The notes: generated by a model from the letters alone, not told the origin. Counted from the stretch's first letter, positions 1 through 64,000 are shown. The stretch is DNA of 64,000 nt from Alphaproteobacteria bacterium (GCA_965204785.1 OZ242015.1:1942538-2006537), one strand, 5' to 3'. Numbers and translations: made by a program.

Positions 1-645
1 GGTCGGCTGGGTTCGGCAATGGTGCTGGACGACGACGGCACCGTGCTGTTCACCTAGGAGAACGCCGAAATTGGCACCGATCTGCTGGAGGGCCTAACCG
101 GCTACGCGCTTCAGTAGATCGTGGTCGACATCTCGCAGAGAAAACGCACCGAACAGGAACTGGTCGCCGCAAATCTGAAGCTGGAGCACACAAACCAGGC
201 AAAATTCCGCTTCATGTCGAGCATGAGTCACGAACTGCGGACGCAACTCAACGCGATCATCGGTTTTTCGGAAACCATGCAGGCCGAGAGCCCGGATCCT
301 ATCGGCAACGACCGTTACAAGGAATACATCAACGACATCCATTTCAGCGGCAACTACCTGCTGGGGCTGATCAACGAAGTCCTGGATATCGCCAAGATCG
401 AACAGGGCGAGCTGCAGCTGACAGACGACGACGGCGACATCGGCGAAATGACCGCGGCGACCATCCGTCTGATGGATCCCATGGCGCAGAAGGGAGAAGT
501 CAATCTGGAGGAGAACCTGCCTATGCTGCACGCTGAAGAAAGATCGGTGCGTCAGGTTCTTTTCAATCTGCTTTCCAACGTGGTCAAGTTCACCGAACCG
601 GGAGGCACCGTCTCGACGCTCGCCAAGTACTCGGCGCCGAAGTAG
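1..645 (+). pseudogene. PAS-sensor histidine kinase remnant. Single reading frame with in-frame TAG at 55-57 and 115-117; HisKA H-box present; ATPase domain truncated at C-terminus.
   Basis: H-box 'FMSSMSHELRTQLNAIIGFSE' in 121..645 ORF. Same frame upstream reads '...MVLDDDGTVLFT*ENAEIGTDLLEGLTGYALQ*IVVDIS' (PAS-like). Protein stops at 'VKFTEPGGTVSTLAKYSAPK*' before a complete HATPase_c. Confidence 0.5.
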
Positions 646-719
646 TTGTCGATATATTCGTCCGTGCGCCCGAACCCCCTGTAATTGTCCAGAGGTGTGC
701 GGGCGCGGCCCCGGTTGCG

Positions 720-1127
720 TTGCTTGTGGAGGTTCTGGAACGGGTTGTCGAGCCCTGGCACGGTCGCCTGCAAGTGGTGGACGGTGACAGCCTGTATATG
801 ACCGGCCACAAGCCACAGGTGCGGCTTTGGGGCGTTGATGCACCAGAGCGCGGCGCGGCAGGTTATCAGCCTGCTACCGCGTTCCTGCGGTCGATTGCCG
901 AAGGCCAGAAGATCACATATCGTCAGATCGACCGCGACAAATACGGGCGCACGATTGCGCGGTGTTTCCTGCCTGACGGTCGAGAGATTAACCGCATAGG
1001 GGGCAGATATGGAAGAGTTGGCGTTTCAATATGCGACACTGAGCGAAAGCGACCGAGGGTTGGTGCTTTGGGTAATTACGGTGATAGGCGCGATTGTTGC
1101 CGCCTTCACAACCAGGTCAGCGTCTGA
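720..1127 (+). CDS. Thermonuclease (staphylococcal nuclease/SNase-like) family protein; start codon and C-terminus uncertain.
   Basis: 'VVDGDSLYMTGHKPQVRLWGVDAPE...DKYGRTIARCFLPDGREIN' matches the SNase fold signature (V-DGDT...IRL-GIDAPE...D+YGR). Lower-GC context. Confidence 0.5.
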   Translation: MLVEVLERVVEPWHGRLQVVDGDSLYMTGHKPQVRLWGVDAPERGAAGYQPATAFLRSIAEGQKITYRQIDRDKYGRTIARCFLPDGREINRIGGRYGRVGVSICDTERKRPRVGALGNYGDRRDCCRLHNQVSV

Positions 1128-1599
1128 ATTACAGCGTGCGGGTTACTTCGCCTTTTCGGGGATGCTTTTCCTGCTGATGATCTTTGTTTCTGTGGGAACG
1201 ATGACTTTCGCCTTTTCGGGGATGTTTTTTCTGCTGATGACCTTTATTTCTGTGGGAACGATGACTTTGCTGCTTGTTCAGGCGATTGTCGGAGGGTTCT
1301 CCTGGGTAATTGCCGGTCTAGAGATTCTCATCATTTTGGTTTTTGGGTTCTTCTTTGGTCGCGTTGCGATGGCTCGGTCACGCGATGCTTATGGGCATAG
1401 CGGTATGGCGGTTTTAGCGTTCGTGCCTCTGGCAAATCTATGGCTTTTGTTCACTCCATCGAAGAATAAGATTTCCGCAAACAGGGTGCCGACGATCCCG
1501 CTTCTAAGCGGTGGTTTGGGTGTGGTTTCTGGATTAGTGATGCTTATAGCAGGGCAGCTATTTCGGCCTATTATGAGATCGAAGCAGAGCGAGTTATAA
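1009..1599 (+). CDS. Integral membrane protein, possibly DUF805-like, carrying an in-frame 60-bp (20-aa) tandem duplication of one TM segment.
   Basis: Hydrophobic ORF with 'FAFSGMLFLLMIFVSVGTMT' immediately repeated as 'FAFSGMFFLLMTFISVGTMT'. Distal 'RVAMARSRDAYGHSGMAVLAFVPLANLWLLF' resembles the DUF805 C-terminal motif. AT-richer island. Confidence 0.4.
   Translation: MEELAFQYATLSESDRGLVLWVITVIGAIVAAFTTRSASELQRAGYFAFSGMLFLLMIFVSVGTMTFAFSGMFFLLMTFISVGTMTLLLVQAIVGGFSWVIAGLEILIILVFGFFFGRVAMARSRDAYGHSGMAVLAFVPLANLWLLFTPSKNKISANRVPTIPLLSGGLGVVSGLVMLIAGQLFRPIMRSKQSEL
1147..1266. repeat. Two tandem 60-bp units (56/60 identical) inside the membrane-protein ORF; in-frame.
   Basis: Direct reading of 1147-1206 against 1207-1266. 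Confidence 0.8.
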
Positions 1600-1691
1600 T
1601 AGAGTATTATGTTGAAGTAGAGCGAGCTATAGAGAAAGCCGTTGCAGAGGGCCGCTTCAACGAATGGTTTCTTGATCAGACATTGGAGCAA

Positions 1692-1970
1692 ATGGCCGCA
1701 GAACTCGCGACTCCCATGACTGTAGATGAAGTGACCACTTTGGTTCGCATGGAAACTGACGAACACACTTTACGGTACGTCTATGAGCTTTCTTCCAATC
1801 CTGATGGACTAAGCATTTCAATGCGCACGGGGCTGGTCAAGCAAAACTGCACCCATGAAGCTTTGAAGCCCGTAATCGAGGCGGGAGCAACAATCGAACA
1901 TCTTTATTTACGGAGCGATGGAACCGAGGTTGGCACGGTTACAGTCAAGCGTGAGATTTGCGGGTATTGA
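1692..1970 (+). CDS. Hypothetical small protein (~92 aa) in the AT-richer island.
   Basis: ORF with GGAG 4 nt upstream of ATG at 1692 (track starts it at TTG 1683). No recognisable motif. Confidence 0.3.
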   Translation: MAAELATPMTVDEVTTLVRMETDEHTLRYVYELSSNPDGLSISMRTGLVKQNCTHEALKPVIEAGATIEHLYLRSDGTEVGTVTVKREICGY

Positions 1971-6146: not shown

Positions 6147-7322
6147 ATGACCCAGGCGCGCGCCGCAGGCGAACCCGACGATCACCGCGACATCCGCGAC
6201 GCCGTGCGGCGTCTTTGCGAAAGGTATGACGGCGCGTACTGGCGCGGGAAGGATGCAGAAGACGCCTATCCCGCCGAGTTCGTCTCTGCCCTGACCGAAG
6301 CCGGGCTGCTGGCAGCACTCATCCCCGAGGAATTCGGCGGCAGCGGCCTACCGCTTTCGGCCGGCTGCGCGATCCTGGAGGAAATCCAGCGGTCGGGCGG
6401 CAACGGCGGGGCCTGTCATGCCCAGATGTACACCATGGGTACGGTGCTGCGGCACGGCTCGGACGCGCAGAAACAGATCTATCTGCCCGCCATTGCGTCG
6501 GGCGAACTGCGCCTCCAGGCCTTCGGCGTTACCGAACCGACCAGCGGCACCGACACCACCGCACTGCGCACCACCGCGCGCCGCGACGGTGAGCGTTACA
6601 TCGTCAACGGACAGAAGGTCTGGACGTCGCGGGCCGAGCATTCCGATCTGATGCTCCTGCTGGCACGCACGACGCCAAACGAAGAGACCGTGAAAAAAAC
6701 CGACGGTCTTTCGGTCTTCCTGATCGACATGCGTGAGGTCCTGGGCAAGGGCCTCATTATCCGGCCGCTGCCCGCCATGCTGAACCACGCCACGACCGAA
6801 GTTTTCTTCGACGCCATGGTCATCCCCGCGTCCAGCCTGATCGGCGAGGAGGGCAAGGGCTTCCGCTACATCCTTTCGGGTATGAACGCCGAGCGCATCC
6901 TGATTGCGTCCGAATGCATCGGGGATGCCCGGTTCTTCATCGACCGCGCCACGGCCTATGCGGGCGAACGCCAGGTCTTCGGCCGGGCCATCGGGCAAAA
7001 CCAGGGCATTCAGTTTCCCATTGCCCAGGCTTATGCCCATACCGAGGCCGCGGCCCTGATGGTCGCCGATGCGGCACGGCGCTATGAGGCTGGTGAACAG
7101 CCCGGCGCGCAAGCCAACATGGCCAAGATGCTGGCCGCCGACGCCTCCTGGGAGGCGGCCGAAATGTGCCTCCAAACCCATGGCGGCTTCGGTTTCGCGC
7201 GCGAATACGACATCGAACGCAAGTGGCGCGAGGCACGTCTCTACCGCACCGCGCCGATCTCGACCAACCTGATCCTGGCCTACCTTGCCGAGCACGTGCT
7301 CGGCCTGCCGCGGTCCTACTGA
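6147..7322 (+). CDS. Acyl-CoA dehydrogenase.
   Basis: ACAD N-terminal, middle and C-terminal domain conservation ('GVTEPTSGTDTTALRTTARRDGERYIVNGQKVWTS', 'ARLYRTAPISTNLILAYLAEHVLG'). Confidence 0.85.
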   Translation: MTQARAAGEPDDHRDIRDAVRRLCERYDGAYWRGKDAEDAYPAEFVSALTEAGLLAALIPEEFGGSGLPLSAGCAILEEIQRSGGNGGACHAQMYTMGTVLRHGSDAQKQIYLPAIASGELRLQAFGVTEPTSGTDTTALRTTARRDGERYIVNGQKVWTSRAEHSDLMLLLARTTPNEETVKKTDGLSVFLIDMREVLGKGLIIRPLPAMLNHATTEVFFDAMVIPASSLIGEEGKGFRYILSGMNAERILIASECIGDARFFIDRATAYAGERQVFGRAIGQNQGIQFPIAQAYAHTEAAALMVADAARRYEAGEQPGAQANMAKMLAADASWEAAEMCLQTHGGFGFAREYDIERKWREARLYRTAPISTNLILAYLAEHVLGLPRSY

Positions 7323-8180
7323 TGACACTGCCGCTGGGGGGCTTCCGGTGGTCGCTATCGAGCAGGCCGTCGTGGGCCGGTCTGCACCTGCAGATCGACC
7401 GACACGGGCATGCGCGTGATCAGGATCGAGTGCGCAGAAGGCGACTTCGCGCGGAGCTGCGACAGCGTCGTGGAGGGCGAGAGCGCCTGTTTCGTCTGGC
7501 TCAACCGTGGCAAGGAGTCCGTGACGCTGGATCTGAAGTCGCCGACCGACCGCGATCTGGTGCCAGCCGTGATGAAGCGCTCCGACGTGCTGGTCGAAAA
7601 CCTGAAACCGGGATCGCTGAAACCGCGGGGGTCGCATGGGCCAACTAACAACGGCGTCGACGGCTTGTCCGGCCATGCCGATCTCAGGCAGATGGCCGTG
7701 GGAACGCTCCACGGCTCCGCGAGACTTTTCCACACCGGCCGCACGCCACGACGGCGCACACCGGCCCGGCCGCGGCGCAATCGGAGGCGCTGGCCTGGCT
7801 GTTCCTTGCAGTGTGCCGCCGGAGCCACCGTTTCGGACGGCATCCTGACCCTGGAAGGGGTGAACCCGGTAACCCTGGCCTTCACGAACCGCCCGCAGCG
7901 GATGGTCACGCACGTCGATACGCAGGCCTTTGCCGAGACGGTCTGGAGCGAAGGCGAGAACAGTTTCGCCGCCGGTCCTCCCAACGCGGTGATCGTTTAC
8001 CGCGAGGACTGCGAAACGAAATCGGCAGTGGTGGGACCTGCCGAACTGAGGATGGCCCAAGGCGGCATCCTGACCTGTGCGGTCAGCGTGTTCGACGGCG
8101 TTCTTCCTCCTGCCATGAAGCAGCCCGGGATCATCATCGGCAACACCGGGGGGCGATGGTGGAGGCGGCGCGGCGGGTGA
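7322..8180 (+). pseudogene. CoA-transferase family III (CaiB/BaiF-like) gene. ATG overlaps the ACAD stop; frameshift near 7400-7410 at a GGG run; distal part unrecognisable.
   Basis: Frame A 'MTLPLGGFRWSLSSRPSWAGLHLQIDRHG' resembles 'GIRVLDLSRVLAGP..LLADLGAEVIKIE'. It continues in frame B 'RVIRIECAEGD...ESACFVWLNRGKESVTLDLKSPTDRDLVPAVMKRSDVLVENLKPGSLKPRG', the family III N-terminal signature. Confidence 0.5.
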
Positions 8181-20940: not shown

Positions 20941-21398
20941 GACGGACGGTCCCGGGTAAGTTCCTGCAGGCGCGCCTTCTCTTCGGGCGTCAGGTTGACT
21001 TCCGCGCTCGCCGGTTCGCCGACCCGCCGCCGCATGACCATCCACACGATCACCGGCACGGCGAATGGAGCAACCCACAACAGCATTGTAGCCGCGTTAA
21101 ACGGTGGTTTCAGCAGCACGTAATCACCATAGCGTTCGACGATATAGGCAACCGCTTCCTCGTTGCCGTCGCCGGCCAGAAGACGCTCGCGCACCAGCAC
21201 GCGCAGATCGCGGGCAAGCGGGGCATCGGAATCGTCGATCGACTGGTTCTGGCAGACCAGGCAGCGCAGGTCCGCACTGATCGCGCGCGCACGGGCCTCC
21301 AGTTCCGGATCGGCAAGCATCTCGGCGGGCTGCACGGCAAACGCAGGCAGCGCAAGCCATCCGGTCAGCAGAGCCATGACGAGAAACCGCGGCATCAT
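20937..21398 (-). CDS. ccmH: Cytochrome c-type biogenesis protein CcmH (CycL).
   Basis: Signal peptide plus '[23 protein letters not shown]' (LRCxxCQ motif). Confidence 0.85.
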
Positions 21399-23379
21399 GC
21401 AGCCTGCGGCCGGGTTCCGGTGGGAATCCTGCGCCGCGACGGGATGGCAAGACGCAGGCGCCGGTCGGTCAGGCTCACCAGCCCGCCGAAGACCATCAGC
21501 AGGCAGCCGCCCCAGATCCAGGGTACGAGCGGATTGTAGTAGAGCCGCACAGCCCAGCCGCCATCGGCCGCCGGATCGCCCAGCACGACATAGAGATCGG
21601 CCAGCAGCGTCGTGCGGATGGCCGCTTCGGTGGTTTCCATCGTCTGGACGAAAAACTGCCGCTTCTCGGGCGTCATCAGGGCGATTTCCTCCCCATCGGC
21701 CAGCACCCGAAAGAGACCGCGCTCGTAGCTGTAGTTGGGCCCTTCACCCGGCACCACACTCTCGAAAACAAGCGTGTAACCGGCTATCTCCTGGCTGTCG
21801 CCGGGCGCCATGGCGCGGATGATCTCGGTCTGCCAGGCCGAAGAGGCCGTGACTCCCGCAACCAGCACCGCCACGCCCAGATGGGAGAGGCTCATGCCAT
21901 AGGCCGAACGCGGCAGGCCCGCCGCGCGACGCCGGCTCTGCCCCGGCGAAAGACGGAAGAGCTGGATGTGTTCGGCGAATTTCAGCACCACGCCCGCGGC
22001 GATCCAGGTTGCCAGCGCAATGCCGAAGGCCGGTATCGGCGAAAGATCGGTGGCGTACCACCACACCACACCACACAGGACGAGGCATGCAAGACCGATC
22101 GCCTTCATGCGCGAAAGCACGCCTTTCAGGTCACCCCGCTTCCAGGGCATCAGCGGCCCCGCCGCCATCGCCAGCAGCAGCGGCACCATGAGCGGCACGA
22201 AGGTCAGCTCGAAGAACGGCGGACCGACCGAGATCCTGCGCCCGCCCATGACATCGAGCAGCAGGGGATAGAGCGTGCCGATCAACACCGTGAAACAGGC
22301 CGTGGCGAGCAGCAGATTGTTCAGCACCAGCGCGCCTTCCCGGCTGATCGGCGCGAACAGGCCGTCGGCTTTCAGCGTCGGTGCGCGCCAGGCGTACAGC
22401 GCCAGCGAACCCCCAACCGCCACCACGAGCAGGAGCAGAATGAAGATGCCGCGCGTGGGATCGGTCGCGAAGGCATGGACGGACGTAAGCGCGCCCGAAC
22501 GTACCAGGAAAGTGCCCAGAAGACTGAGCGAAAAGGCGATGATCGCCAACAGCACGGTCCAGCTCTTGAGCGCTCCGCGCTTCTCCGTGACGATGGCCGA
22601 GTGCAGCAGTGCGGTGCCCGCCAGCCAGGGCATGAACGAGGCGTTCTCGACGGGATCCAGAACCACCAGCCGCCCCAGCCCAGCTCGTAATAGGCCCACC
22701 AGCTTCCCATGGCGATACCCAGGGTCAGGCTGGTCCAGGCGGCCAGCGTCCAGGGGCGCACCCAGCGTGCCCATGCAGCATCGACGCGGCCCTCCAACAG
22801 CGCGGCGACGGCAAAGGAGAATGCCATCGAGAAGCCGACATAACCCAGGTAGAGAAACGGCGGATGGAACGCCAGACCCGGGTCCTGCAGCAACGGATTG
22901 AGGTCGCGCCCGTCCAGAGGCGCCGGGTCGAGGCGCAGGAACGGATTGGAGGTGAAAAGCGAAAACGCCAGAAAGCCGGCGGCGATCAGGCCCTGGATCG
23001 CAAGCACCCGCGAACGCAGCGTCACCGGCAGGTTCGCACCCAAAAACGCTACGGCAAGCCCGAAGAGCGCCAGGATGAGCACCCATAGCAGCAGCGAACC
23101 CTCGTGGTTTCCCCACACGCCCGAAACCTTGTAGAGCATCGGTTTGAGGGAATGCGAGTTCTCGTAGACGTTCGCGACCGAAAAATCCGACACGACATAG
23201 GCATACGTCATCGCGAAAAACGCGATGGCGATCAGCACAGCCTGGCCGAGCGCCGCACCGGGAGCGAGCGCCATCATCGCGCCGTTGCCGCGCCATGCGC
23301 CCCAGAGCGGCAGCGTGCCCTGCACGAGGGCGACACAGAACGCCAGAATCAGGGCAAAATGACCGATTTCGGCGATCAA
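21395..23379 (-). CDS. ccmF: Cytochrome c heme lyase CcmF (CycK). Single -1 frameshift near 22651-22664 (a missing C in a CCC run), possibly a sequencing error.
   Basis: N-terminal part (23379→22372) '...[12 protein letters not shown]' and C-terminal part (frame of 23296→21395) '[20 protein letters not shown]' join exactly at the conserved '[14 protein letters not shown]' segment. Confidence 0.8.
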
Positions 23380-40497: not shown

Positions 40498-41490
40498 ATG
40501 CCGGCGCTTTTCAACTTGCCGTGTGTCCTGCTGCTGGCAGCAGCGTTGCTGACCGGCTGCAACACCTACACGCGCGAGACCGGCGTGGAGGACGTCACCC
40601 GGGTCGACATCGATCCGCGCCATCCCGGCGAGGTCGTAATCGGCGAACTGCAGTTCGTCACGGGCTACAAGCTGGAATACGGCGCGCGGTTCTTCGGCGG
40701 GCTCTCAGGACTCATCATCTCCGAGGACGGTAGGGACCTGACCGCCATCACCGACCACGGCGACTGGGTCGATGCCAGCATGAGCCACGACTTACAAGGC
40801 CGCTTGACCGGGATCAGCGGCATTTCCATTCACCCGCTGATCGGGTTGGAGGCCGACGATATCGACACCATCCTGGAACCCAAGGAGCGCGACGCCGAAG
40901 CGATGACGGTGATGCCCGGCGGACGCGTGATGGTGGCGTTCGAGCGCCGCCACCGGGTCTGGGTCTATGACGACCTCGCCACGCGCGACAATCCGCTGGA
41001 ACTCGATGTGCCCGAGAACATCGTGCGCCTGGCCAGCAACGGCGGCATCGAAGCCCTGGAATTTCTGCCCGATGGGCGCCTACTGATGATCGCCGAGGAG
41101 CCAGTCGGAACCGGCAGGATCATCGATGCCTGGATTCTGGAAGACAATATGGAGTGGCGCTGGATCGGCTACCAGATGAACGACGGTTTCAGCGTGGTCG
41201 ACGCCACCGCGTTGCCCGACGGCCGCGTCATTGTACTGGAACGCTGGTTCGCCGCACCGATCTCCCTGCGCATCCGCTTGCGCGAACTCACGCCCGAGAT
41301 GCTCGACGGCGGCGGCCCGCTGGACGGCACACCTATTTCGCTGCTGAAGCAGAACCTCGTGATCGACAACTTCGAGGGTCTGGACCACCGCATCGGTCCC
41401 AACGGCGAGATTTATCTCTACATGGTCTCCGACGACAACTTCAACGATCTCCAGGCGACCTATCTCTACCAGTTCCTCCTGCTCCCATGA
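40498..41490 (+). CDS. Esterase-like activity of phytase family lipoprotein (PF13449-like).
   Basis: Lipobox 'LLTGC'; 'FGGLSGLIISEDGRDLTAITDHG' and C-terminal 'YLYMVSDDNFN'. Confidence 0.65.
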   Translation: MPALFNLPCVLLLAAALLTGCNTYTRETGVEDVTRVDIDPRHPGEVVIGELQFVTGYKLEYGARFFGGLSGLIISEDGRDLTAITDHGDWVDASMSHDLQGRLTGISGISIHPLIGLEADDIDTILEPKERDAEAMTVMPGGRVMVAFERRHRVWVYDDLATRDNPLELDVPENIVRLASNGGIEALEFLPDGRLLMIAEEPVGTGRIIDAWILEDNMEWRWIGYQMNDGFSVVDATALPDGRVIVLERWFAAPISLRIRLRELTPEMLDGGGPLDGTPISLLKQNLVIDNFEGLDHRIGPNGEIYLYMVSDDNFNDLQATYLYQFLLLP

Positions 41491-42190
41491 GTGGCGCCCG
41501 CGCCACGCTCAATCTGCGTGCTGTCAGGCCGGAGGATCTCAACGCCTATTTCGTACTCTTCCGGGAGGTCCAGGCGCTGCACGTCGCCGAACGGCCCGAC
41601 CTCTTCCAGCCGCCGGAGAAGTCGGAGGCATTCGAGCGCCATTTCGCCGACGCCGTGGCCGCACAAGGAGATCATCATCGCCTGGCTGGGCGGGAACGCG
41701 GTCGGCGCGGTGCATTACAAAGTCACCGGACCCCACCGGGATCTACCTGATCGACCGGCCGATGATCTGGATCGAGTCGATCGCCGTGGCTTCGCACATG
41801 CGCCACAAAGGCATCGCTACCGCGCTGATCTCCCTGGTGCGCCAGGTCGCCGCGCAACAGGGCATCGCCGATCTGGGCCTGGAGGTCTGGTCGTTCAACG
41901 AGGGTGCCGCAATGGCGTTCGAGGCCGCCGGCTTCACCGCGCGCACGCCAGAACCATGCTGGACGCTGTCTGATCAAGGGTGTCGCCTCGCGGTTTATGT
42001 TTGTTCCTTCAGACGCCGAGCGTTCGCCCCGCTCACTTGGCCTCCGTCACAGGGGCGCCGCCGGTACGGTCGCACCGGTCGGCGGCCGCTTCGCTCGCGC
42101 CGCCGAACGTCATCACAACCATCTCAGGCGTGTCATCCCGGCCTTGAGCCGGGATTTCGTTCCGCAGACTGCTTCGGAAACGCGTCATGA
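41488..42190 (+). pseudogene. GNAT N-acetyltransferase split over three frames (shifts near 41655 and near 41740 at a CCCC run). C-terminus runs into a repeat element.
   Basis: 'MSGARATLNLRAVRPEDLNAYFVLFREVQ' then 'HKEIIIAWLGGNAVGAVHYKV' then 'MIWIESIAVASHMRHKGIATALISLV...AFEAAGF'. Confidence 0.55.
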
Positions 42191-46753: not shown

Positions 46754-46813
46754 CGGCTTTTAACCATCCATCTCGCAAGTGCGAAATGAGTATGGGATCG
46801 CCCCCGTGGACCG

Positions 46814-47373
46814 TCAATCCGTCGAACGCGCCCGCGGCACTTCGAGCGACACGTCGCGGGGCGAGTCGTCGCCGCCATTTGTCGGATAGACATTGTCGGG
46901 ATAGGCCGAAAACACCATCAGACAGGGAATCAGCGCCTTCACTTGAACGTAACTGCCCGGCGGACGACCGGACGCACATAGTCGATCGCCTTGCCGTGCT
47001 GACCGGGGCCAGCATGAAGTAGGTTCCAGGTCGCCGGCGTGAAGGAGCAGGACCTGCCCTCCCCGGCCAGGGCATGGGCCAGATTGTCCGAGCAGTTGGC
47101 GTGCCCGGCGTCCGCACCGGCCCGTTCGTACATGCCCGGACTGCAGGCGGCGATCAGCGTGTCGCCGGGATCGAAGGTGATTTTCTGGAGCACCTCGCGG
47201 CGGTGCTCCATCGAAAGCAGATCGTCCTTGCCGTCGTCTGCGAACGCCCAGGTATCGACGAACTGCGTGCCGTGTGTGTTGACGATGCGCAGGCAATCGC
47301 CCCGACGGAGGCGTACCGCGCGCCCATGAGCGCCCGGCAAGCGAAGACGGGTTTCGGGCTCAGCCATCGCCAT
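46814..47373 (-). CDS. DUF1989 (urea-carboxylase-associated) family protein with one frameshift near 46975-47000.
   Basis: 'GRAVRLRRGDCLRIVNTHGTQFVDTWAF...HANCSDNL' in one frame continues as 'GSYVQVKALIPCLMVFSAYPDNVYPTNGG' in the -1 frame. Confidence 0.5.
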
Positions 47374-48280
47374 AGTCCGGGTTCCGGCTGATCCAATTTG
47401 CAACCTTCGCGTCGATCACAACCGCAAGGTCAGGCGCCAGGCGGGCAAGCTCGTCATGGATGAACTTTGAACGCGCGCGGATTTCCGGGCTGCCGTCGAT
47501 CTCGGCCGACAAACCGGCCCAGAACATGGCGGCCGCGGCAATGCGTTCGGCGAGACTGCCGTCGTCCCGCTCGGCGATCGAAGACAGCAGCTGGGCGAGC
47601 ATCGCCGCCGCGCGCACCTCTCCGCCCTCAAAGGCAATCCTGAGGTAGGTGTTGGCCTTCGCCGGACCGAACTCCCTGCCGTTGTTCGCATTCTTGTAAT
47701 CAAGGCCCACAAGCATGGCCGCAAAGGCGTGCCCGCCATCGGCGGCCGCAGCCAGCCAGTAGTTCGCCTTTTCCAGATCTTACTCCGTACCGACCCTGCG
47801 CTGACACCAGTCCGCCACGGTGTCCATCGCCTCAATGTCGCCCGCCTCAGCACCACGTTTTGAACTGGGCCTCGGCAATACCGGCTCACCGGCCTCGCGA
47901 TAATAGTCGCAACCCCGAACCGTGTTGGCGTTCACGTCTTCGCCATTGGTATACATGTCACCCAACACCATCGCGGCGCGGGCGTCACCCTGCGCAAGGG
48001 CCGTGGTCAGCGTCGCCAGTGCAAGACCGTAGCCCCTCTCGCGCGCGGCGGTCCCAAGATCGTAGCTATCCGAAGCCGGCGCCGGCGCCGTCCCCAGAAG
48101 CCGGCGCCGTCCCCAGAAGAAATACCAGGATCAGGTTTTTACCAACGGCCATTAGATTTAGCCGTGGAGCCATGCGTTCGCTCACCATACCTGTCTCCAC
48201 GCTATTCCGCGGTGACAGCATGGCGTCAGATCCGTCCGGGTTCAAATTCCCACGGTGACGGCACGGCACATTCCAGCTCG
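47360..48280 (-). pseudogene. Secreted Sel1-repeat protein disrupted by a 19-bp tandem duplication (48082-48119) and an in-frame TAA (47780-47782).
   Basis: Signal peptide 'MAPRLNLMAVGKNLILVFLLGTAPASG'; Sel1 motifs 'LGDMYTNGEDVNANTVRGCDYYREAGE' and 'MLVGLDYKNANNGREFGPAKANTYLRIAFEGG' lie in a frame +1 from the signal peptide. Confidence 0.6.
48082..48119. repeat. Exact 19-bp tandem duplication (CCGGCGCCGTCCCCAGAAG ×2) causing a frameshift in the Sel1-repeat gene.
   Basis: Read directly. Confidence 0.85.
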
Positions 48281-50442: not shown

Positions 50443-51658
50443 TTGCCCGGTGAGACCGCTTATCGCTCGCCGGGCCCCGACTTGTATCAGAGGAGACGCC
50501 CAATGGCCGGGTCATGGTTCCGGGCGCCGTTGAACGCAATCGTGCTGCTTTGGGGCGTGTTGCTCATCACGTCATGCGATGACGCCGCGACGCCGATGCC
50601 AACCGCGACGCCACCACTCACGCTGATGGTCGTGACCGTCAGCGAACGCGAGATCGTTGGCGAGGCCTAATTACGTCGGTCGCGTCGAGGCGGTGGCCGA
50701 TGTCGAGTTGCGTGCACGGGTCACCGGTTTCATCGAGGAAATCCTGGTCACCGGCGGCCAGGACGTGAAGGAAGGTGATCTTCTTTTCCTGATCGAGTGC
50801 GCACCGTTCCAAGCCAGCGTCGATCTAGCCCGCGCCAACGTCGCCAACGCGCAGACCAATGTGAACATGACCGGATTGCAACTCCAGCGCAGCCAAACCC
50901 TTTACGACGGCGGCGATCTGACCAAGGCCAGGCTGGAACAGGACCGCTCGGCATAAAGGCAGGCGACCGCCCAACTCCAGGCCGAACAGACGCAGTTGCG
51001 TCAGGCCGAGATCGAATTTGGCTATACCTTGATCATCGCGCCCATTGCAGACCATGTCGGCGCGACCGCCTACAGCGTGGGCGTCCTTGTCGACGCCTCC
51101 AGCAATCTCTTGACGGACATCATTAGCCTCGATCCCATATACGTGACCTTCTCGGTCAACGAAAACATCATGTTCCAGGTCAAACGCGTCCGCATCGAAC
51201 TGGGTCTGGACGCAACGTTCGAGGCAACCGACGGGATCGAGACCCTGGTCATCCCCGGCTGTGCTTGTCCGACGGCAGCGGCGTCATCGACTTCATCAAA
51301 AGCACGGTAGACCTTCGCACGGGCGCGATAGACGTCCGCGGTGTTTCCCAACCCGGATCAGTTTCTTTCGCCGGGCCAGTTCGTGACCGTGGTGGTCAGC
51401 GAGGAAGCACCGCAAAGCGCCATCACGATCCCCCAGACCGCGGTGCAGAGTGACAAGGCCGGCACCTTTGTCCTAGTGGTCGATGCCCAGAACCAAGTCT
51501 CGCAACGGCGCATCACGACCGCGAGGACCGACGGCACCGACTATGTGGTCAACAGTGGTCTCGTCCAGGGCAACACAGTGATCGTCCAGGGCATCCTGAA
51601 GGTGTGGCCCGGCGCGCCGGTCAACCCGGTCTACGATACCAGCGGCGCCGGCGGCTGA
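50443..51658 (+). pseudogene. RND efflux membrane-fusion (AcrA-like) protein gene, fragmented over ≥4 frames.
   Basis: Pieces: lipoprotein signal 'LLITSCDD'; 'YVGRVEAVADVELRARVTGFIEEILVTGGQDVKEGDLLFLIE'; 'QAEIEFGYTLIIAPI'; 'GQFVTVVVSEEAPQSAITIPQTAVQSDKAGTFVLVV'. First break is a missing C in 'gaggcc(c)taat' at 50664-50672. Confidence 0.7.
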
Positions 51659-51665
51659 GCAGACC

Positions 51666-53060
51666 ATGGCAGACTTTTTCATCGAGCGGCCGAAGTTCGC
51701 GTTCGTCATCTCGATCCTGATTACCCTGGGCGGGCTCATCTCACTCAGCGTCCTACCAGTCTCCGAGTTTCCCGACATTTCACCCCCGCAGGTCTCGATA
51801 TCCGCCAGTTATCCCGGCACCAATGTCGAAGTCATCGAGGACACGGTAGCCGGCCGATCGAGTCCCAGGTCAACGGCGTCGACGGCATGAGCTCGACCAG
51901 TTCATCTTCGGGAAGCTAAAACCTCACCGTTACCTTCGATCTGGGGATCGATTCCGACCTTGCCGCGGTCAACATCCAGAACCGTGTCGCGGTTGCCGAA
52001 AACTCATTGCCCGAGGAAGTCTGGCGCGGCGGCGTAACCGTCAAGAAGGCCTCGCCCAGCATGTTGATGGTGATCAACGTGTTTTCACCGCAGGGCACCT
52101 ATGACAGCGTGTTCCTCAGCAACTACACCAGCATCAATCTGCGCGACGCCATCCAGCGCGTGCCAGGGGTCGGTGACGCTTCGCTTCTGGGCACGCAGGA
52201 CTACGGCATGCGTGTCTGGCTCGACCCTGACCGCATGGCTTCGCTTGTCCTGACGGCGAGCGATATCGTCAACGCCATCCGCGCGCATAACATCCAGGCC
52301 ACCGCGGGCCAGATCGGCGCCGCGCCAATCGGCGAGGGCCAGCAGTTCCAGTATTCGATCAGAGCGCAGGGTCGCCTGAGTTCGCCCAAGGAATTCGGCG
52401 ACATCGTCGTCATCTCCTATCCCGAAGGCGGGGATCCGCGCCTGCGCGACATCGCGCGTATCGAACTGGACTCGGCAGCATATGGCTCCTACGGACAACT
52501 GAACGGACAGGCTCCGGCGGCGCTCGCCATCTATCAGGCGCCGGGTGTCAACGCGCTCGTCATGGCCGAAGTCGTGATGAACGATGTCGAGGAAATCCTG
52601 ATGACACGGGCGGCGTCGCCGACGTCATGGTCATTCCGGGCTTCAACCTGCTGGGCGGCGCGATCTCGAACGGCGGCATGGTCATCGTGGTGCTAGACCC
52701 CCGGGAAGAGCGCACGACCCGTCGCTCGACATCAACGTGATCATGGGCAAAGCCCAGGACCAGATTCTGGCAATCAGCCAGGCCAACGCATTCGCGCCGC
52801 CGGTTCCGGGACCAGGCACGACCGGCGGCTTCGATTTCAAGGCCCAGGACGTTTCGGGCCGGACGCTCCAGAATCTCGCCCAGGCGATCGGCGCTATGAT
52901 GTACAACGCCAACCAGGACTCCATGCTTTCGGGCGTTTTCAGCACTTTCCGCGCCAACGTGCCGCAGCTCTTCCTGGAGGTCGACCGCGAGAAGGCCGAG
53001 ACGCTGGGCATTCCGCTAGTCGTCATCCATCCCGCGCCGCGCCGGGCGGTCACGACATAA
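51666..53060 (+). pseudogene. RND efflux permease (AcrB-like) gene. Only ~the first 450 of ~1040 codons remain, with frameshifts and an in-frame TAA (51917-51919).
   Basis: 'MADFFIERPKFAFVISILITLGGL...PPQVSISASYPGTNVEVIEDTV' and 'NIQNRVAVAENSLPEEVWRGGVTVKKASPSMLMVINVFSPQGTY' in different frames. Homology ends ~53040, where a minus-strand TM-protein remnant (53016-53311) begins. Confidence 0.7.
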
Positions 53061-53313
53061 CCGGCGGTAAAGAGGGCAATGGCCGGTATGGCGAGCAGCG
53101 TTCCCAGCGCTGCCTCCGCAGCGAACGCCGGACCGTATTCGACGGCCAGGAATACCGAGACGGGGCCGGTGGTGAGAGGCAGGCCCAAGAGCCGGCCTCG
53201 GGCAGCCGCACCCCAGCACGAACAACCATACGGCCGCCGCAATGATGAACGATGGTGCAACCAACTTGAAAAAGAGCAGCGACACGGCGAACCGTCACAC
53301 GCGCCGGACACGT

Positions 53314-54274: not shown

Positions 54275-55636
54275 TGACCAAGCGCGACGAACGCGACGAA
54301 CTTGCCAGTCTTGCCAGGGACTTCATGGACCTGTGGCAGGAGCACGTGGCCCAGCAGGCGGCCGACCCGACGCTGGCGCGCTGGGCGCAGACCTGGCTTG
54401 CCAACATGCCGACGGGGGTGACCGGGGATGGAAGCACACAGGACGGGGCCGCGCCCCTTGGCCCTGCATCTCGCAACATCGGCAAGCGTCTGGATGAGTT
54501 CGCTCGCCGCCTTGGGGCCTGCGAGGAGCGGCTTGATAAGCTGGAGCAAAAACCTGCCCGCAAAACAGCGCGAAAGTCTGGGCCCGATCCAGACCGCGAT
54601 CGCGGCAGCCGACGCTGAAGGGCTGGCCCGCGAAGTCACCGCCGAAGCGACGCGCCGCCTTTCCGAATTCGTCGCCGGCATCCGTGCCTATCGTGACCAC
54701 CCCTACCGCCGTCCCGCGACACAGGCTGGGCCGATCTGGCAGGACGGCTCCTCGCGGTTGCTGGACTACGGCGGCACGGGCCGTCCGCTGCTTCTCGTTC
54801 CGTCCCTTATCAACCGCGCGGAAATCCTCGACCTGCGGCCGGGTGCGAGCTTCTGCGCCTGGCTCCGCGACCATGGGCATCGTCCCCTACTGCTCGACTG
54901 GGGTGCGCCGGGCGAGGCGGAGACCAATTTCAACCTCGACACATACATCAACCGGCGCCTGGGCGTTGCGCTCGATGCGGCCAACAGACTGGCGGACGGA
55001 TCGGTCCCCATGGTCGGCTATTGCATGGGCGGTTTGCTGGCTCTCGCCTCGGAGTTCGCCAACTCCGGCAAGGTTTCAAGCCTCGCTCTGCTTGCCACGC
55101 CCTGGGATTTCCATGCCGACCGCAGCGGCCAAACCGGCATGCTCGCCACAGCCGCGGCACTGCCTAGCGCGCCGGACACCCCGCCGCTCCCGGTCGATCT
55201 GATCCAGGCGCTGTTTGCCTCCCTGCAGCCCAACCTGATCCAGGCGAAGTTCCGCCGCTTCGCCACGATGGACCCGGCCGCCCCGGAAACAGAGGCCTTT
55301 GTCGCACTGGAGGATTGGCTGAACGACGGCGTCGCACTCGCAGCACCGGCTGCGCGTGATTGCCTGATCGGCTGGTACCGCAACAACACCCCGGCCGAAG
55401 GCCGCTGGATGGTGAACGATGTGCCCATCGACCCCGGCAAGCTTACCTGCCCCGCCTTCGTCGCACTCTCCACCCGTGACCGCATCGTGCCGCCTGCCTC
55501 GGCGAGCGCACTGGCCCAGGCTCTGCCTGACCCCACAGTCATCGAACCGCGCACCGGCCACATCGGCATGATGGTCGGCAGCCGCGCCGAATCAGCGCTG
55601 TGGTGGCCATTGGCGGAGTGGCTGGAGTCCCACTAA
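54275..55636 (+). CDS. PHA-synthase (PhaC)-like alpha/beta hydrolase, short form; one frameshift at an A5 run near 54547-54554.
   Basis: Lipase box 'VGYCMGGLL'; 'RPLLLVPSLINRAEILDLRPGASFCAWLRDHGHRPLLLDW' parallels the PhaC 'PLLIVPPWINKYYILDL' region. N-terminal 54275 frame joins the 54428 frame at 'LDKLEQ|KNLPAKQ'. Confidence 0.6.
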
Positions 55637-58659: not shown

Positions 58660-58952
58660 TCAGGCGGCGAGCGGCTTGATGCACCGGATCTCGCTGCCAC
58701 TGCGGTCCCCGGCGCAATCGAGTTCGTAACGCGCCTGCAAGTTGAGCCAAACCTCCGGTGTCGTGCCGAAGAACTGTGCAAGCCGCAGAGCTGTGTCGCC
58801 GCTGACACCACGCCGTCCACGAACAGTTCGCTGATGCGATTGGCCGGAACCTCTAGCGCCCGCGCCAAGGCACTGGCCGTCAGACCATTGGGCTTCAGGA
58901 ATTCCTCTTGCAGAACTTCGCCGGGATAGACCGGCGGCAGACGTATTGTCAT
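58660..58952 (-). CDS. higA: HigA antitoxin (HTH-XRE) with an apparent +1 frameshift near 58805-58825.
   Basis: 'MTIRLPPVYPGEVLQEEFLKPNGLTASALARALEVPANRISEL' then, shifted one frame, 'RGVSGDTALRLAQFFGTTPEVWLNLQARYELD'. Confidence 0.6.
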
Positions 58953-58992
58953 GGCAATCTTCCTAGTCATGATAATCGACAATCTCGACGTC

Positions 58993-59247
58993 CTAGGCGT
59001 CCCCATCCAGCCAGCGGAAACACATCCGCCATTGCCGGTTGATCCGGATGGAGTGCTGGCCAGCCCTGTCGCCCTTCAGGGCTTCGAGCCAGTTACCGGA
59101 CGGGGTCCGCAGATCATCATCCAGCCGCATGGTCGAATCGAGATAACGTAATTTAATCAATGCAGCCCGCTCGAACGCGTGGAACCTGTGCACGGCCTCG
59201 CGATCGGCAAGCCTCCGGGAGTCTTTGTCCGCAAAGGTCCGGATCAT
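58993..59247 (-). CDS. higB: HigB toxin (plasmid-maintenance killer protein, RelE/ParE superfamily).
   Basis: 'MIRTFADKDSRRLADREAVHRF...LDDDLRTPSGNWLEALKGDRAGQHSIRINRQWRMCFRW'. Confidence 0.75.
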   Translation of the reverse strand: MIRTFADKDSRRLADREAVHRFHAFERAALIKLRYLDSTMRLDDDLRTPSGNWLEALKGDRAGQHSIRINRQWRMCFRWLDGDA

Positions 59248-59260
59248 GGTTCATATGCAA

Positions 59261-59331: not shown

Positions 59332-60477
59332 ATGAGCGACGACCTGTTTGATCCCACGCATTATGCCGCGGTGCGCCGACCGGTGCTGGAGGCTTCGACC
59401 CTGCCGGCGTGGTGCTACACGTCGCCGGAGTTTTTCCGGCGCGAGTGCGAACGTGTGTTCTCGCGGGGCTGGCAGTTTGTCGGCCGGGTCGAAGAGGTGC
59501 CCGAAAGCGGATACCGCAATGTCGAGACGGTCGGCGGGCCCGTCCTGCTGGTCCGGGACGGCAGGGGGACGCTGCGCGCCTTTGCCAACACCTGCCGGCA
59601 TCGCGGCGCCAAGCTGGCCGAGGGTTCGGACACCTGCGCGCGCCTCGTCTGCCCCTACCATGCCTGGAGCTACCGCCTGAACGGCAGCCTGACAAGCGCA
59701 CCCGGCATGGAAAAAACCATAGCCTTCGATACCGCCGACCATGCGCTCACACCGGTGCGCATGGAGGTCTGGGCCGGCTTCATCATCGTGTGTTACGACG
59801 AAGCCACCCCGGCACTTCAGACCTATTTCGGCGATCTGACCCAACGGCTCGCCAGTCACCGTTTCGAGGATTTTGTCTGCGTGCGTCGCCGGGAATACGA
59901 CGTTGCGGCGAACTGGAAGCTGATCGCCGAGAACGCCATGGAGGCCTACCACACCGGCTCGGTGCATGGCGCTTCCCTAGGCCAGCAGGCCGCGCGAGAT
60001 CTGGAGACCAGCGGGCACTGGGACGCTATCCAGGTGCTGGGCGAAGAGTCCATCGCCGTCCTGCCTGGCGAAGCGATTCCGTTCGCGCCCGTAACAGGCC
60101 TTTCGGACGAGGCCGCGGCGGGGACCTACTTCACGACGCTCCATCCCAACACGCAGTTTGCCTGTGTGCAGGACAGCATGTGGTGGATGACCTACCGACC
60201 GATAGCCGCCGACCGCACGATCCTGCATGTCGGCCAGTGTTTCCCGCGCAAAACCGTGGAGCGCGAGGATTTCGACCGGGGTGCGGCACCCTATTTCAAG
60301 CGCTGGGATACCGGCATCGCCGAGGACAACGCGATCTGCGAAGCCCAACAGGCGGGCATCTCGTCCCTGCTGCACCGCCAGGGCCGTCTTTCGGAGAACG
60401 AAACCCGCGTGCATCGCCTCAACAACTGGATTCTCGATCAGGTTCTCGACGATGACCGCGCCTGCCGCCGTATCTGA
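59332..60477 (+). CDS. Rieske [2Fe-2S] oxygenase alpha subunit (second copy; GbcA/CntA-like).
   Basis: 'CRHRGAKLAEGSDTCARLVCPYHAWSY'; mononuclear-iron region 'NAMEAYHTGSVHGAS'. Confidence 0.8.
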   Translation: MSDDLFDPTHYAAVRRPVLEASTLPAWCYTSPEFFRRECERVFSRGWQFVGRVEEVPESGYRNVETVGGPVLLVRDGRGTLRAFANTCRHRGAKLAEGSDTCARLVCPYHAWSYRLNGSLTSAPGMEKTIAFDTADHALTPVRMEVWAGFIIVCYDEATPALQTYFGDLTQRLASHRFEDFVCVRRREYDVAANWKLIAENAMEAYHTGSVHGASLGQQAARDLETSGHWDAIQVLGEESIAVLPGEAIPFAPVTGLSDEAAAGTYFTTLHPNTQFACVQDSMWWMTYRPIAADRTILHVGQCFPRKTVEREDFDRGAAPYFKRWDTGIAEDNAICEAQQAGISSLLHRQGRLSENETRVHRLNNWILDQVLDDDRACRRI

Positions 60478-61129
60478 CGTTCGCCCCCGCCTGCTGGATA
60501 CCCTGGTCGGCCTGGGCGCCGTGCTGATCTGGTCGGCGGGCGGCCCCATTTACACCTTCGTCAGCGAAGTCCCCCCGCTCCAGATGATCGCCATGACCTT
60601 TGTCTAGTTCATCCTGGTCATGCTTGTAGTGTGGCGTTGGCGCGGCGAGCCCATCCGGGAAAAGTTCAAGTTGCCCGCCAAGGTCTGGTTCATCGGCATC
60701 CTGGGCCCGTGGAGCTAAACCATCTGTTTCTTTGTCTCCTACCGCCTGATTGCGCCGGTGGACGCCAGCCTTCTGCTGCTCTCCTGGCCGATCCTGCTGC
60801 TGGTTGCCAACGCCGCCCTGCTCGGACGGCGTATCCGCTGGTGGCACGCGCTGGGCACCATTGCCGGATTCTTCGGTGCGGCCATCCTGGTGCTGGGCCT
60901 TCTCAACACCGCCGCGACCCTCTTTACCTGGGACTACGCCGTCAAACACAGGCATGTGCGGGTTCCGGTCTCGCTGAGCTACCTCATCCCGCTCTTCACC
61001 GCGCTGATCCTGATCGGCATCGGTGCGAGCGCCTTTACCACCGCTGTCGGCATAGCCTGCACCCTCATCGTCACCAGCGCCTTTGTCAGCTCCCGCAAAC
61101 TCTTCATGAAGAAAGAAGCAGCGGTCTGA
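60452..61129 (+). pseudogene. DMT/EamA-family transporter gene with two in-frame nonsense codons (TAG 60605-60607, TAA 60716-60718) in a single frame.
   Basis: Continuous hydrophobic frame '...IWSAGGPIYTFVSEVPPLQMIAMTFV*FILVMLVVWRW...ILGPWS*TICFFVSYRLIAPVDASLLLLSWPILLLV...'. Confidence 0.6.
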
Positions 61130-61139
61130 CCCGGAAGTT

Positions 61140-62402: not shown

Positions 62403-62470
62403 GGTGTGCTTGTTCTCCCGAAACTCGGGGCCCTGACGGTCCCGCCGAATCACATGGTAGAGTACCTGCG

Positions 62471-63274
62471 ATGTATCAGGATGTCGCCGATCTCAATGCG
62501 TTTTATCACGCGCCGCTAGGCCAGGTCGCGCGCCGGCTGATGCTGGCGCGGTTTCGCGCCCTGTGGCCCGACATCACCGGCGCGCGGCTGATGGGGCTGG
62601 GTTACACCACACCCTATCTGCGCGTCTTCCAGGAAGAAGCGATCCGAGTGACGGCCTTTGCGCCGGCCGCGCAGGGCGTGATCCGCTGGCCTCAGGACGG
62701 TATGGCGCAGGTCTGCCTGACCGACGAGGATGTGCTGCCGCTTGCCGATGAATCCATGAACCGCATTCTGATGGTCCACGCCCTAGAACACAGCGAGGCA
62801 CGCTCGGCGATGATGCGCGAGGTCTGGCGTGTCATGGCACCGGGCGGGCGGCTGCTGGTCGCCGTCGCCAACCGGCGCGGCATCTGGTCGCGTGCCGACC
62901 ACACGCCGTTCGGCCACGGCTCGCCGTTCAACGAAACCCAGATCGACCGTCTGCTGCGCGATTGCATGTTCACGCCGCTGGCGTCGGAGTTCGCGCTCTA
63001 TGTGCCGCCCAGCCAGCGGGGCCTGTCGCTGTGGTCGGCCCCGGCATGGGAACGCCTGGGGCGCCAATGGGGTCTGCCGCTGCCCGGCGTCGTGCTGGTC
63101 GAGGCGACCAAGCAGATATACGGCGCGATTCCGGCGAGACGGCGGCGCAGCCTGCGCCAGCGCATCCTTATCCCCGCGCCTTCCCCCGCCGCTTCTTGCG
63201 TACCTCCGGCCGGAAGAGCTCGAACACGGCCTGTTCGGAAAATAGGTTCGACTGGCCCTCGAAGTTCGGCTTGA
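62471..63274 (+). CDS. Class I SAM-dependent methyltransferase-like protein; 3' end uncertain (overlaps convergent metW).
   Basis: 'LMGLGYTTPYL...RILMVHALEHSEARSAMMREVWRVMAPGGRLLVAV' methyltransferase fold. Confidence 0.6.
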   Translation: MYQDVADLNAFYHAPLGQVARRLMLARFRALWPDITGARLMGLGYTTPYLRVFQEEAIRVTAFAPAAQGVIRWPQDGMAQVCLTDEDVLPLADESMNRILMVHALEHSEARSAMMREVWRVMAPGGRLLVAVANRRGIWSRADHTPFGHGSPFNETQIDRLLRDCMFTPLASEFALYVPPSQRGLSLWSAPAWERLGRQWGLPLPGVVLVEATKQIYGAIPARRRRSLRQRILIPAPSPAASCVPPAGRARTRPVRKIGSTGPRSSA

Positions 63275-63863
63275 TGACCGTCACCTCGCGTCCCTTGGAG
63301 ATGCCATAGGCTCGCCCCACGCGGATGCCCTGGATGCGCGTGAGGTCCAGAAAATCGCGCACCGTGCAGGGGCGGATATTCGCGGTCTCGAACCAAGGCG
63401 TGGAAAGCGTGCGGGTGTGGGGCATGCGTCCGCGTGTCATCATGGACATGCGCGCACACCAGTGGCCGTAGTTCAGGATCGAGACGATCGCCGTATCGGC
63501 GATGCGCAGCAGTTGGGAGAGCACGTCTCGGGGATGGCGCACCGCCTGCAGGGTGTGACTCAGGATGACGTAATCGAAGCTGTCGTCTGGATAGTCGACC
63601 AGGTGGCGGTCCGCATCGCCTTGGACGACAGGCAGGCCGCGCGCGACGCAGGCGTTCACGCCGGTCTGGCTGATTTCCATGCCGCGGCCGTCGCAATCCT
63701 GTTCCTTGACCAGGTATTCCAGCAGCGCACCGTCGCCGCAGCCCACATCCAGCAAGCGTGATTCCGACTCAATCATGCTTGCGACCAGCCCCAAGTCGGG
63801 ACGCAGGCCGTAGGCATTCTCGCCCAGAATGAAGCGGTCGCGTGCGCCGCTGAGAAGACTCAT
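63168..63863 (-). CDS. metW: Methionine biosynthesis protein MetW.
   Basis: 'LDVGCGDGALLEYL...VILSHTLQAVRHPRDVL'. Confidence 0.85.
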   Translation of the reverse strand: MSLLSGARDRFILGENAYGLRPDLGLVASMIESESRLLDVGCGDGALLEYLVKEQDCDGRGMEISQTGVNACVARGLPVVQGDADRHLVDYPDDSFDYVILSHTLQAVRHPRDVLSQLLRIADTAIVSILNYGHWCARMSMMTRGRMPHTRTLSTPWFETANIRPCTVRDFLDLTRIQGIRVGRAYGISKGREVTVIKPNFEGQSNLFSEQAVFELFRPEVRKKRRGKARG

Positions 63864-63866
63864 CGC

Positions 63867-64000
63867 TCAGACCCCCGCTTCGCGCGCGACGCTGTCGATA
63901 AAGCCGCTTGCGGTCGCGAAGAGATCGGGCTCATCCAGTAGAAAGGCGTCGTGGCCCTTGTCGCTCTTGATCTCGACGAAGCTGACATTGGCACCCGCGC
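63867..64000 (-). CDS. metX: Homoserine O-acetyltransferase MetX, C-terminal fragment (continues beyond the window).
   Basis: '...[13 protein letters not shown]...' C-terminus directly upstream of metW, the canonical metXW arrangement. Confidence 0.7.

Follow-up and report, generated by a model that had tools for sequence, protein, structure and literature searches.

Gene loss under a deletional bias is the classical view of how pseudogenes form and erode, and where about 20% of the genes are pseudogenes, one would sooner expect a bacterium recently restricted to a host than one living free in the marine plankton. Long-read and low-coverage assemblies, for their part, are well documented as sources of homopolymer indels and spurious pseudogenes (PMC9262707, PMC11017572, PMC13087279). 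Here, we set both backgrounds against a 64,000-nucleotide (nt) stretch of the genome of an Alphaproteobacteria bacterium (GCA_965204785.1 OZ242015.1:1942538-2006537; hereafter the window, meaning the whole 64 kb, with positions counted from its first letter) in which disruptions affect about 12 of ~54 genes. Among these are the cytochrome c maturation gene ccmF, both genes of a higBA toxin-antitoxin module, and an acrAB-like locus.

The reading that we favor, with a probability of roughly 0.75, has three parts. Eleven of the disrupted genes are genuine pseudogenes or remnants left by the ordinary decay of accessory genes (a PAS histidine kinase, a caiB-like gene, a GNAT acetyltransferase, a DUF1989 gene, a Sel1-repeat gene, the AcrA-like and AcrB-like genes, a gene for a 264-amino-acid [aa] membrane protein, higB, higA, and an EamA transporter), the single frameshift in ccmF is a consensus error of the assembly, and a phaC-like gene that had been thought frameshifted is intact. 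Inactivation would have come about through ordinary mutations, namely, nonsense point mutations, indels from replication slippage, a single tandem duplication, and deletions flanked by short repeats, and the inactivated genes would then have been eroded by further deletions, as in normal bacterial gene loss in progress; we infer the time order of these events. This is ordinary, already known biology rather than a new system. The window resembles other cases of pseudogene erosion in having several independent disabling lesions per gene, deletions between short repeats, accelerated amino acid change, and remnants that adjoin loci wholly lacking in relatives, and it differs from them in its high local density (~20% of the genes in 64 kb).

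An earlier note on this sequence had proposed that indel error and real decay are mixed here. The idea was right, and ccmF is indeed error-like, but most of the assignments of individual genes to one class or the other were wrong. The window thus offers a worked example of how real and artefactual pseudogenes in a metagenome-assembled genome (MAG) can be told apart without reads, from four kinds of evidence: lesion type, lesion count per gene, assemblies of near-identical strains, and relative-rate tests against syntenic relatives. It documents, in a marine lineage about which little is known, the ordinary erosion of accessory genes, a toxin-antitoxin module that is dead, and what remains of a prophage, and its main use is as a caution in annotation.

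Lesions are clustered and of kinds foreign to read error

Coding open reading frames (ORFs) were chosen by codon-usage score and annotated with Pfam. Lesions were then sought in two ways: by asking whether successive parts of one Pfam profile sit in different reading frames, and by aligning the window to intact orthologs in syntenic relatives. Translations containing stop codons were submitted to the family searches with X at the stop positions. The comparison with orthologs confirmed most of the lesions that had been listed earlier and cleared the phaC-like gene. It also brought to light a good deal that the list had lacked: a premature stop in higB; a stop and three further indels in the AcrA-like gene; a 281-aa deletion and a second frameshift in the AcrB-like gene; the remnant of the 264-aa gene; deletions in the DUF1989 gene (69 nt), the EamA gene (237 nt), and the PAS domain of the kinase; and the 3′ truncation of the kinase.

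The impression of unusually many disrupted genes was largely correct, if in need of several corrections, and goes well beyond chance (P = 5e-7 for at least 11 disrupted genes at a base rate of 3%). About 35 lesions fall in 12 genes, whereas scatter in proportion to gene length would strike ~25 genes; in 100,000 simulations the number struck was never below 15. At least three lesions are found in each of seven genes, versus about two such genes expected (p = 9e-5). The lesions include kinds that are foreign to read error (nonsense substitutions, an exact 19-bp tandem duplication, and 3′ truncations), and the multi-base deletions measure 5, 15, 69, 237, ~600, and ~840 nt and ~1.5 kb. The clumping, taken together with the nonsense changes, the multi-base deletions, and the duplication, excludes random sequencing error as the source of the pattern.

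One alternative puts most or all of the disruptions down to noise in a long-read MAG and takes the genes themselves to be intact, and it does have precedents. Many reported pseudogenes are artefacts (PMC11017572), the methylmalonyl-CoA mutase gene of one related MAG (L002; e.g., 6484-8653) is broken into no fewer than six ORFs, and a near-identical contig (L081, introduced below) contains four coding deletions in C runs within 14.7 kb. The lesions in the window are nevertheless clumped rather than scattered, leaving ~42 kb of neighboring genes lesion-free, and eight nonsense substitutions, deletions of 5 to 1500 nt, and a 19-bp duplication are not what read noise produces. That an independent data set from a different strain has the higB, higA, and EamA lesions in identical form, and that the AcrA and AcrB remnants show lineage-specific acceleration, are direct observations, presented in the next two sections, that argue in the same direction. 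This alternative is largely refuted, and we hold it to be very improbable.

Lesions shared with a second strain: higBA and EamA

Two sets of independent assemblies, each from a slightly different strain, overlap the window. An ENA contig (ERZ25068762:ctg135194_6x_l, 6x coverage; L081/L082) matches positions 18721-34517 at 99.6% identity, and two Logan contigs from run SRR23871864 cover positions 58530-59433 (L084, 99.78% identical) and 60341-61459 (L085, 99.46% identical, 5 substitutions). Among the pseudogenes, these assemblies cover higA, higB, and the EamA gene, and none was found for the other eight; an exact look-up of pseudogene fragments in search of further independent assemblies had five fragments on record, from the source contig only.

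The first of the two loci is like a chromosomal type II toxin-antitoxin higBA module in that the toxin gene comes first, the products match HigB-like toxins and the TIGR02607 HigA family, and the whole is an insertion missing from relatives (it is absent from L001 and L005). The gene for the HigB-like, RelE-fold toxin (58963..59247, minus strand) lies directly upstream of the gene for the HigA helix-turn-helix (HTH) antitoxin (58660..58970, minus strand), with an overlap of a few bases. In higA, a −1 frameshift lies at ~58824/58825 (GAACT|GTTCG), as had been noticed earlier; the repaired HigA matches TIGR02607 at 101 bits (cutoff, 47.7), and its HTH_3 domain spans the junction. The earlier note had listed this frameshift as a possible artefact that, if real, would leave a HigB toxin unopposed. 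Neither suggestion holds. L084 contains the identical higA frameshift together with an identical premature TAG in higB (58993-58995). Lying nine codons short of the native stop, this TAG removes the C-terminal DVEIVDYHD (full-length homologs have ~93 aa), and the coverage of HigB-like_toxin (PF05015) is 3-83 of 91 positions for the truncated protein and 3-91 of 91 with read-through.

In the HigB protein of Proteus vulgaris, the C-terminal Asp-Tyr-His residues are conserved and are needed for toxicity and mRNA cleavage (PMC5027501). Because the premature stop in higB takes away this catalytic tail, there is no unopposed toxin. Unlike a functional module, the one in the window has both partners inactivated, the toxin lacking its Asp-Tyr-His residues and the antitoxin being frameshifted, and to judge from the predicted products, both halves are dead.

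The EamA/DMT transporter pseudogene (60452..61129, plus strand) contains two in-frame stops that can be read directly and that had been named before, a TAG in place of CAG (60605-7) and a TAA in place of TAY (60716-8), as well as a 79-aa (237-nt) in-frame deletion at ~60893 flanked by AILV-G repeats. When the stops are read through, the Pfam EamA profile is covered from 5 to 134 of 135 positions, and an intact 304-aa homolog (P0144) reads Q and Y where the window has the stops. Both stops and the 79-aa deletion are identical in L085, and no counterpart of the gene occurs in any related locus that was compared. Their identity in the SRR23871864 contigs shows that the lesions of higA, higB, and the EamA gene are real and are shared between strains.

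Multiple lesions and relaxed constraint in the acrAB region

The AcrA-like (membrane fusion protein) pseudogene (50503..51658, plus strand) carries a +1 frameshift at ~50668-71, a TAT-to-TAA change at 50954-6, and indels of −1 at ~51256, −15 at ~51279, and −2 at ~51340. These were read from tblastn with the AcrA proteins of two relatives (L078 and L007) and from nucleotide alignment, which bear out the earlier report of a frameshift near 50668. The AcrB-like (RND pump) pseudogene (51666..53036, plus strand) has fared worse, with a −1 frameshift at ~51852, a 9-nt deletion, a TAC-to-TAA change (51917-9), an internal loss of aa 336-616 (281 aa) at ~52600, a frameshift at ~52714, and another 9-nt deletion. 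It is finally cut at aa 764 of ~1058 by a deletion of ~1.47 kb, leaving ~46% of its length and an end at 53036. Pfam ACR_tran fragments and blastn and tblastn comparisons with L078, L003, and L002 agree on this picture, in which the frameshift near 51852, the TAA (read directly), and the reduction in length had already been recognized.

The same 1.47-kb deletion joins the truncated acrB to what is left of a gene on the opposite strand, a 5′ remnant (aa 32-107; 52988..53215, minus strand) of a gene for a 264-aa membrane protein. The remnant is 59% identical over 76 aa to an L078 protein (tblastn), and ORF maps place the intact gene between acrB and phaR in L078 and L003; no family match was obtained for this protein. 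Relatives are divided over acrAB and the 264-aa gene: L002, L003, L078, L007, and L008 have them, and L001 and L004-L006 do not.

A dN/dS comparison, which had been proposed as a check on the affected genes, proved uninformative: pairwise values (Nei-Gojobori) were dropped because dS is saturated (0.7-3) and most of the divergence is older than the inactivation. We used the Tajima relative-rate test instead, counting unique amino acid changes with L078 as the sister and L003 as the outgroup. In the AcrB remnants, the window has 52 unique changes versus 10 in L078 (p = 6e-8), and in the AcrA remnants, it has 47 versus 19 (p = 8e-4), so these remnants have changed 2.5 to 5 times faster than the sister lineage. 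The flanking genes have not (aminotransferase, 6 versus 7; PhaR, 7 versus 8; PhaC, 7 versus 7; none significant). Neither the higBA locus nor the acrAB locus should be counted as functional.

Five further accessory-gene pseudogenes

The remaining pseudogenes belong, like those above, to loci most of which are variable or absent among relatives, and for this reason we regard the affected genes as accessory. The earlier note had considered that the disruptions of the caiB-like, AcrA-like, AcrB-like, GNAT, and DUF1989 genes might be artefacts of short homopolymers; all five proved to be genuine pseudogenes with multiple lesions.

The DUF1989 pseudogene (46800..47367, minus strand) has lost its native stop and carries a 69-nt in-frame deletion at 47164/47165 together with frameshifts of +1 at ~47020, −1 at ~46997, and −1 at ~46966, the last three confirming what had been suspected in this interval. 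Only positions 3-64 of the 168 in the Pfam profile are matched; intact genes in L004-L007 were used for the alignment. In L001, the gene survives only as a C-terminal stub fused to a short Sel1 gene.

In the window, the neighboring Sel1-repeat pseudogene (47360..48152, minus strand) combines a tandem duplication with an in-frame TAA (47780-47782), both of which had been noticed and can be read directly. The duplication is an exact 19-bp repeat (48081-48099/48100-48118; 2.1 copies at 100% identity in TRF) that shifts the frame inside the signal peptide. The Pfam match is weak, and homologs in L001 and L003 are short or partial.

The GNAT acetyltransferase gene (41487..41973, plus strand) is intact in L001, L004, and L005 (nucleotide alignment), and the window copy runs through three frames (tblastn). 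It is disrupted, as had been claimed, but not by one homopolymer slip: it has lost 5 nt at ~41660, between GCC repeats, and another 5 nt at ~41727, and it has gained 2 nt by expansion of a CG repeat at ~41940. None of these indels is a homopolymer slip.

For the caiB-like (CoA-transferase family III) pseudogene (7322..7770, plus strand), a single frameshift had been reported. There are in fact two −1 slips, at ~7348 (GGG to GG) and ~7373, followed by an internal deletion of ~600 nt, a further frameshift at ~7730, and the loss of the 3′ end. The deletion corresponds to aa 180-378 of an intact ortholog on the metagenome contig Ga0233427_10006380 (L086; tblastn), and the Pfam match is confined to profile positions 15-98 of 366. 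A 752-aa gene that lies 3′ of caiB in L086 has been lost from the window (7770-8235), where an ORF tail (7770-8180) shows no recognizable homolog and no match in a PDB sequence search. Elsewhere in the comparison with L086, the interval between GGT and acyl-CoA dehydrogenase (window 5522-6162) is ~1.6 kb shorter in the window, a TauD-like gene being among what is missing.

The PAS histidine kinase remnant (1..645, plus strand) retains an intact HisKA domain (Pfam 2-66 of 66) and has no HATPase_c match in a three-frame translation, this domain being lost from ~642. Two in-frame TAG codons (55-57 and 115-117), read directly and reported before, enclose a PAS domain that an internal deletion has shrunk to ~20 aa. 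The remainder of the HATPase was not found in six frames across 640-2140. That stretch has a low G+C content (0.54) and contains an SNase-like ORF (720-1127) and a hydrophobic ORF (1009-1599), the latter with a 60-nt tandem repeat in two copies (1147-1268).

A single frameshift in ccmF

The disruption of ccmF (21395..23379, minus strand) is of another kind. As had been seen, it consists of a single −1 frameshift, which lies at 22658/22659, where the plus strand has CC for CCC (junction WWFW|DPVENAS). It splits the Pfam matches between frames, with Cytochrom_C_asm 1-155 in one and Cytochrom_C_asm 146-206 plus CcmF_C 1-323 in the other. Repaired, the protein is 100% identical over all 661 aa to P0001, a protein encoded on ERZ25068762:ctg135194_6x_l, and in the nucleotide sequence of that contig (L081), the extra C is present and CcmF is encoded intact, at 661 aa. 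Apart from the missing C, there is no nucleotide difference between the two copies of ccmF and no other sign of relaxed constraint, while over 14.7 kb, 39 substitutions and a few indels separate the window from L081.

Five of these indels are one-base changes in coding sequence, and in all five, it is the broken copy that has lost a base from a C/G run. The window is the broken copy in ccmF (22659), whereas L081 is broken and the window intact in ccmI (19840, 19930, and 20860) and in DAO (18798). Since ccmF is intact in the sister assembly and the sister assembly has reciprocal C-run deletions in genes that are intact here, the frameshift is probably an error. In light of this sister-assembly comparison, a homopolymer consensus error of the assembly would be its most likely origin, and a cytochrome c maturation defect is unlikely. 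To call ccmF a pseudogene, and hence to describe the organism as one without c-type cytochromes, would probably be wrong. The case is like the artefactual pseudogenes described in the literature (Sereika et al. 2022, PMC9262707; Cooley & Wright 2024, PMC11017572; nanoMDBG, PMC13087279) in that a C run is one base short in an otherwise perfectly conserved gene and in that an independent assembly lacks the change and has reciprocal errors of the same kind. It is unlike them in that error accounts for only 1 of the 12 disrupted genes. The source contig is probably a long-read assembly.

It may be asked instead whether every lesion is real, that of ccmF included, System I cytochrome c maturation having been lost within a broader wave of inactivation. 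Natural indels favor homopolymers too, the sister assembly comes from a different strain, and the pseudogene density of the window is high. Yet ccmF has neither a second lesion nor an amino acid change relative to the L081 protein, and the adjoining ccmH and ccmI are intact in the window. Moreover, deletions of the same C-run class break other essential-looking genes in the other assembly, so that a real ccmF lesion would mean that two near-identical strains had each lost cytochrome c maturation, independently and via different genes. That the ccmF lesion is real in this strain seems to us unlikely, though not so unlikely as to be set aside, and we are likewise doubtful of the wider scenario of a general wave of inactivation. 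A lineage of free-living type in early, active genome reduction, with ~20% pseudogenes genome-wide and, if ccmF is real, a recent loss of cytochrome c maturation, would be a more far-reaching interpretation of the same density, and we consider it improbable.

Several points weigh against the combination of accessory-gene decay and a ccmF consensus error that we prefer. The comparison strains are 0.2-0.5% divergent, so the ccmF frameshift could be a real, very recent, strain-specific mutation. No other homopolymer error is detectable in the window over the 16.7 kb covered by other assemblies, which means that its error rate is low and which also favors the view that all lesions are real. We infer the sequencing technologies of the source contig and of SRR23871864, and the lesion calls are made on assembled sequences, not at the level of reads; some of the one-base indels within the multi-lesion pseudogenes may themselves be errors. 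Finally, the relative-rate test that revealed acceleration in AcrA and AcrB did not do so for GNAT, which shows no excess of amino acid change (12 versus 10 unique changes; compared with L001). The status of GNAT as a pseudogene would accordingly have no basis other than lesion type (a 5-nt deletion at each of two sites and a 2-nt insertion), and the lack of acceleration would make its inactivation recent.

The sister contigs have peculiarities of their own. In L081, ccmI is split into three ORFs, the stretches affected in ccmI and DAO being 12441-13793 and 14395-14658, both intact in the window. L084 (at window position 59239) and L085 (at 60571) are each one C short in a C run (CC and C6, respectively) relative to the window; these losses break the N terminus of higB and add a frameshift to the EamA gene, with the same error-like signature as in L081. 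The C-run losses suggest that the SRR23871864 data set is also long-read or low-coverage.

Premature stops and genetic recoding

The eight premature stops comprise four TAG and four TAA codons and no TGA, a bias that the earlier note had singled out because intact genes mostly end in TGA. It is indeed true that 27 (64%) of 42 intact genes terminate with TGA, and one might suppose that reassignment or suppression of TAG and TAA, or programmed frameshifting, keeps the affected genes functional. The other 15 intact genes, however, terminate with TAG (10) or TAA (5). A single-substitution model based on the codon usage of the window predicts a TGA share of only 17-24% among nonsense changes, at which the probability of finding none in eight is ~0.17; the absence of TGA is thus not significant and requires no recoding. 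In-frame stops occur only in genes with other lesions, each of which is also deleted, truncated, or frameshifted, and the orthologs of CcmF are without exception proteins of ~660 aa read in a single frame. Scans of the 64-kb window found no tRNA gene, tmRNA gene, or Rfam element. We give recoding practically no credence.

An intact phaC-like gene

The phaC-like gene (54428..55636, plus strand), for which a frameshift in an A run had been reported, has none. It is one continuous frame encoding a 402-aa, class III-like PhaC and is annotated as such in the source genome; it is collinear with its counterparts in L001 (72% identity over 432 aa) and L007 and matches TIGR01836 and Abhydrolase_1. The impression of a frameshift came from a 114-aa ORF (54274-54618) lying in another frame across the first ~190 nt of the gene. 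This ORF, which is open in L001 and L007 too, has no match in Pfam or NCBIfam; it may encode a small partner of the polyhydroxyalkanoate (PHA) synthase, or it may be a chance open frame in high-GC DNA.

Source organism, gene content, and mobile elements

A scan of species-representative genomes found that marine "Rhodospirillaceae"/alphaproteobacterial MAGs match the class III aminotransferase (49094-50437) at 84-94% protein identity, and synteny with relatives extends over window positions 39.6-63.5 kb at 70-84% nucleotide identity. The source organism is an uncultured marine alphaproteobacterium related to these MAGs. The window belongs to a contig of 3,752,649 nt (3.75 Mb), which in exact look-ups was the one contig with the window's proteins on record, several pseudogene fragments included. 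Its closest relative by DNA, L002 (CALSLK010000023.1, MAG A_MB180), was rejected as a clean reference, being itself full of frameshifts; it is a GTDB species-representative MAG, and its gene calls are probably unreliable.

The G+C content of the window is ~63%, falling in two islands (1-2 kb and 14-16 kb), and the gene content is that of an ordinary alphaproteobacterial chromosome. It includes the ccmFHI operon, methylmalonyl-CoA mutase and MeaB, ribosomal protein L28, phaR, phaC-like, phaA, and phaB genes, glutamate dehydrogenase, an ABC transporter, and several oxidoreductases. Six-frame Pfam scans of the gene-poor stretches 640-2140, 34340-35380, and 38090-39680 found only the SNase-like ORF and an HNH ORF and no further gene remnants. 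A fourth gene-poor stretch (26630-28450; 1.8 kb, GC 0.59), where no six-frame scan was made, has only small ORFs and no Rfam match, and the gene calls of the sister contig there have no Pfam match; inside it, the strains differ at an AT-rich hotspot of indels (27614-27626).

A Mu-like prophage remnant occupies 34518-39660. It comprises an HNH endonuclease gene (~34.7-34.96 kb, minus strand), a MuA-type transposase gene (35367-37451, minus strand; phrog_310), and a Mu Gp27/small terminase gene (37435-38097, plus strand), followed by ~1.5 kb without a family match. Because the collinearity of the sister contig ctg135194 stops exactly at 34517, the remnant marks an insertion or rearrangement breakpoint between the strains. 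A restriction-modification pair, apparently intact, lies in the low-GC island at 14-16 kb and consists of an MT-A70 family methyltransferase (13987-14622) and a BglII-like endonuclease (14629-15327).

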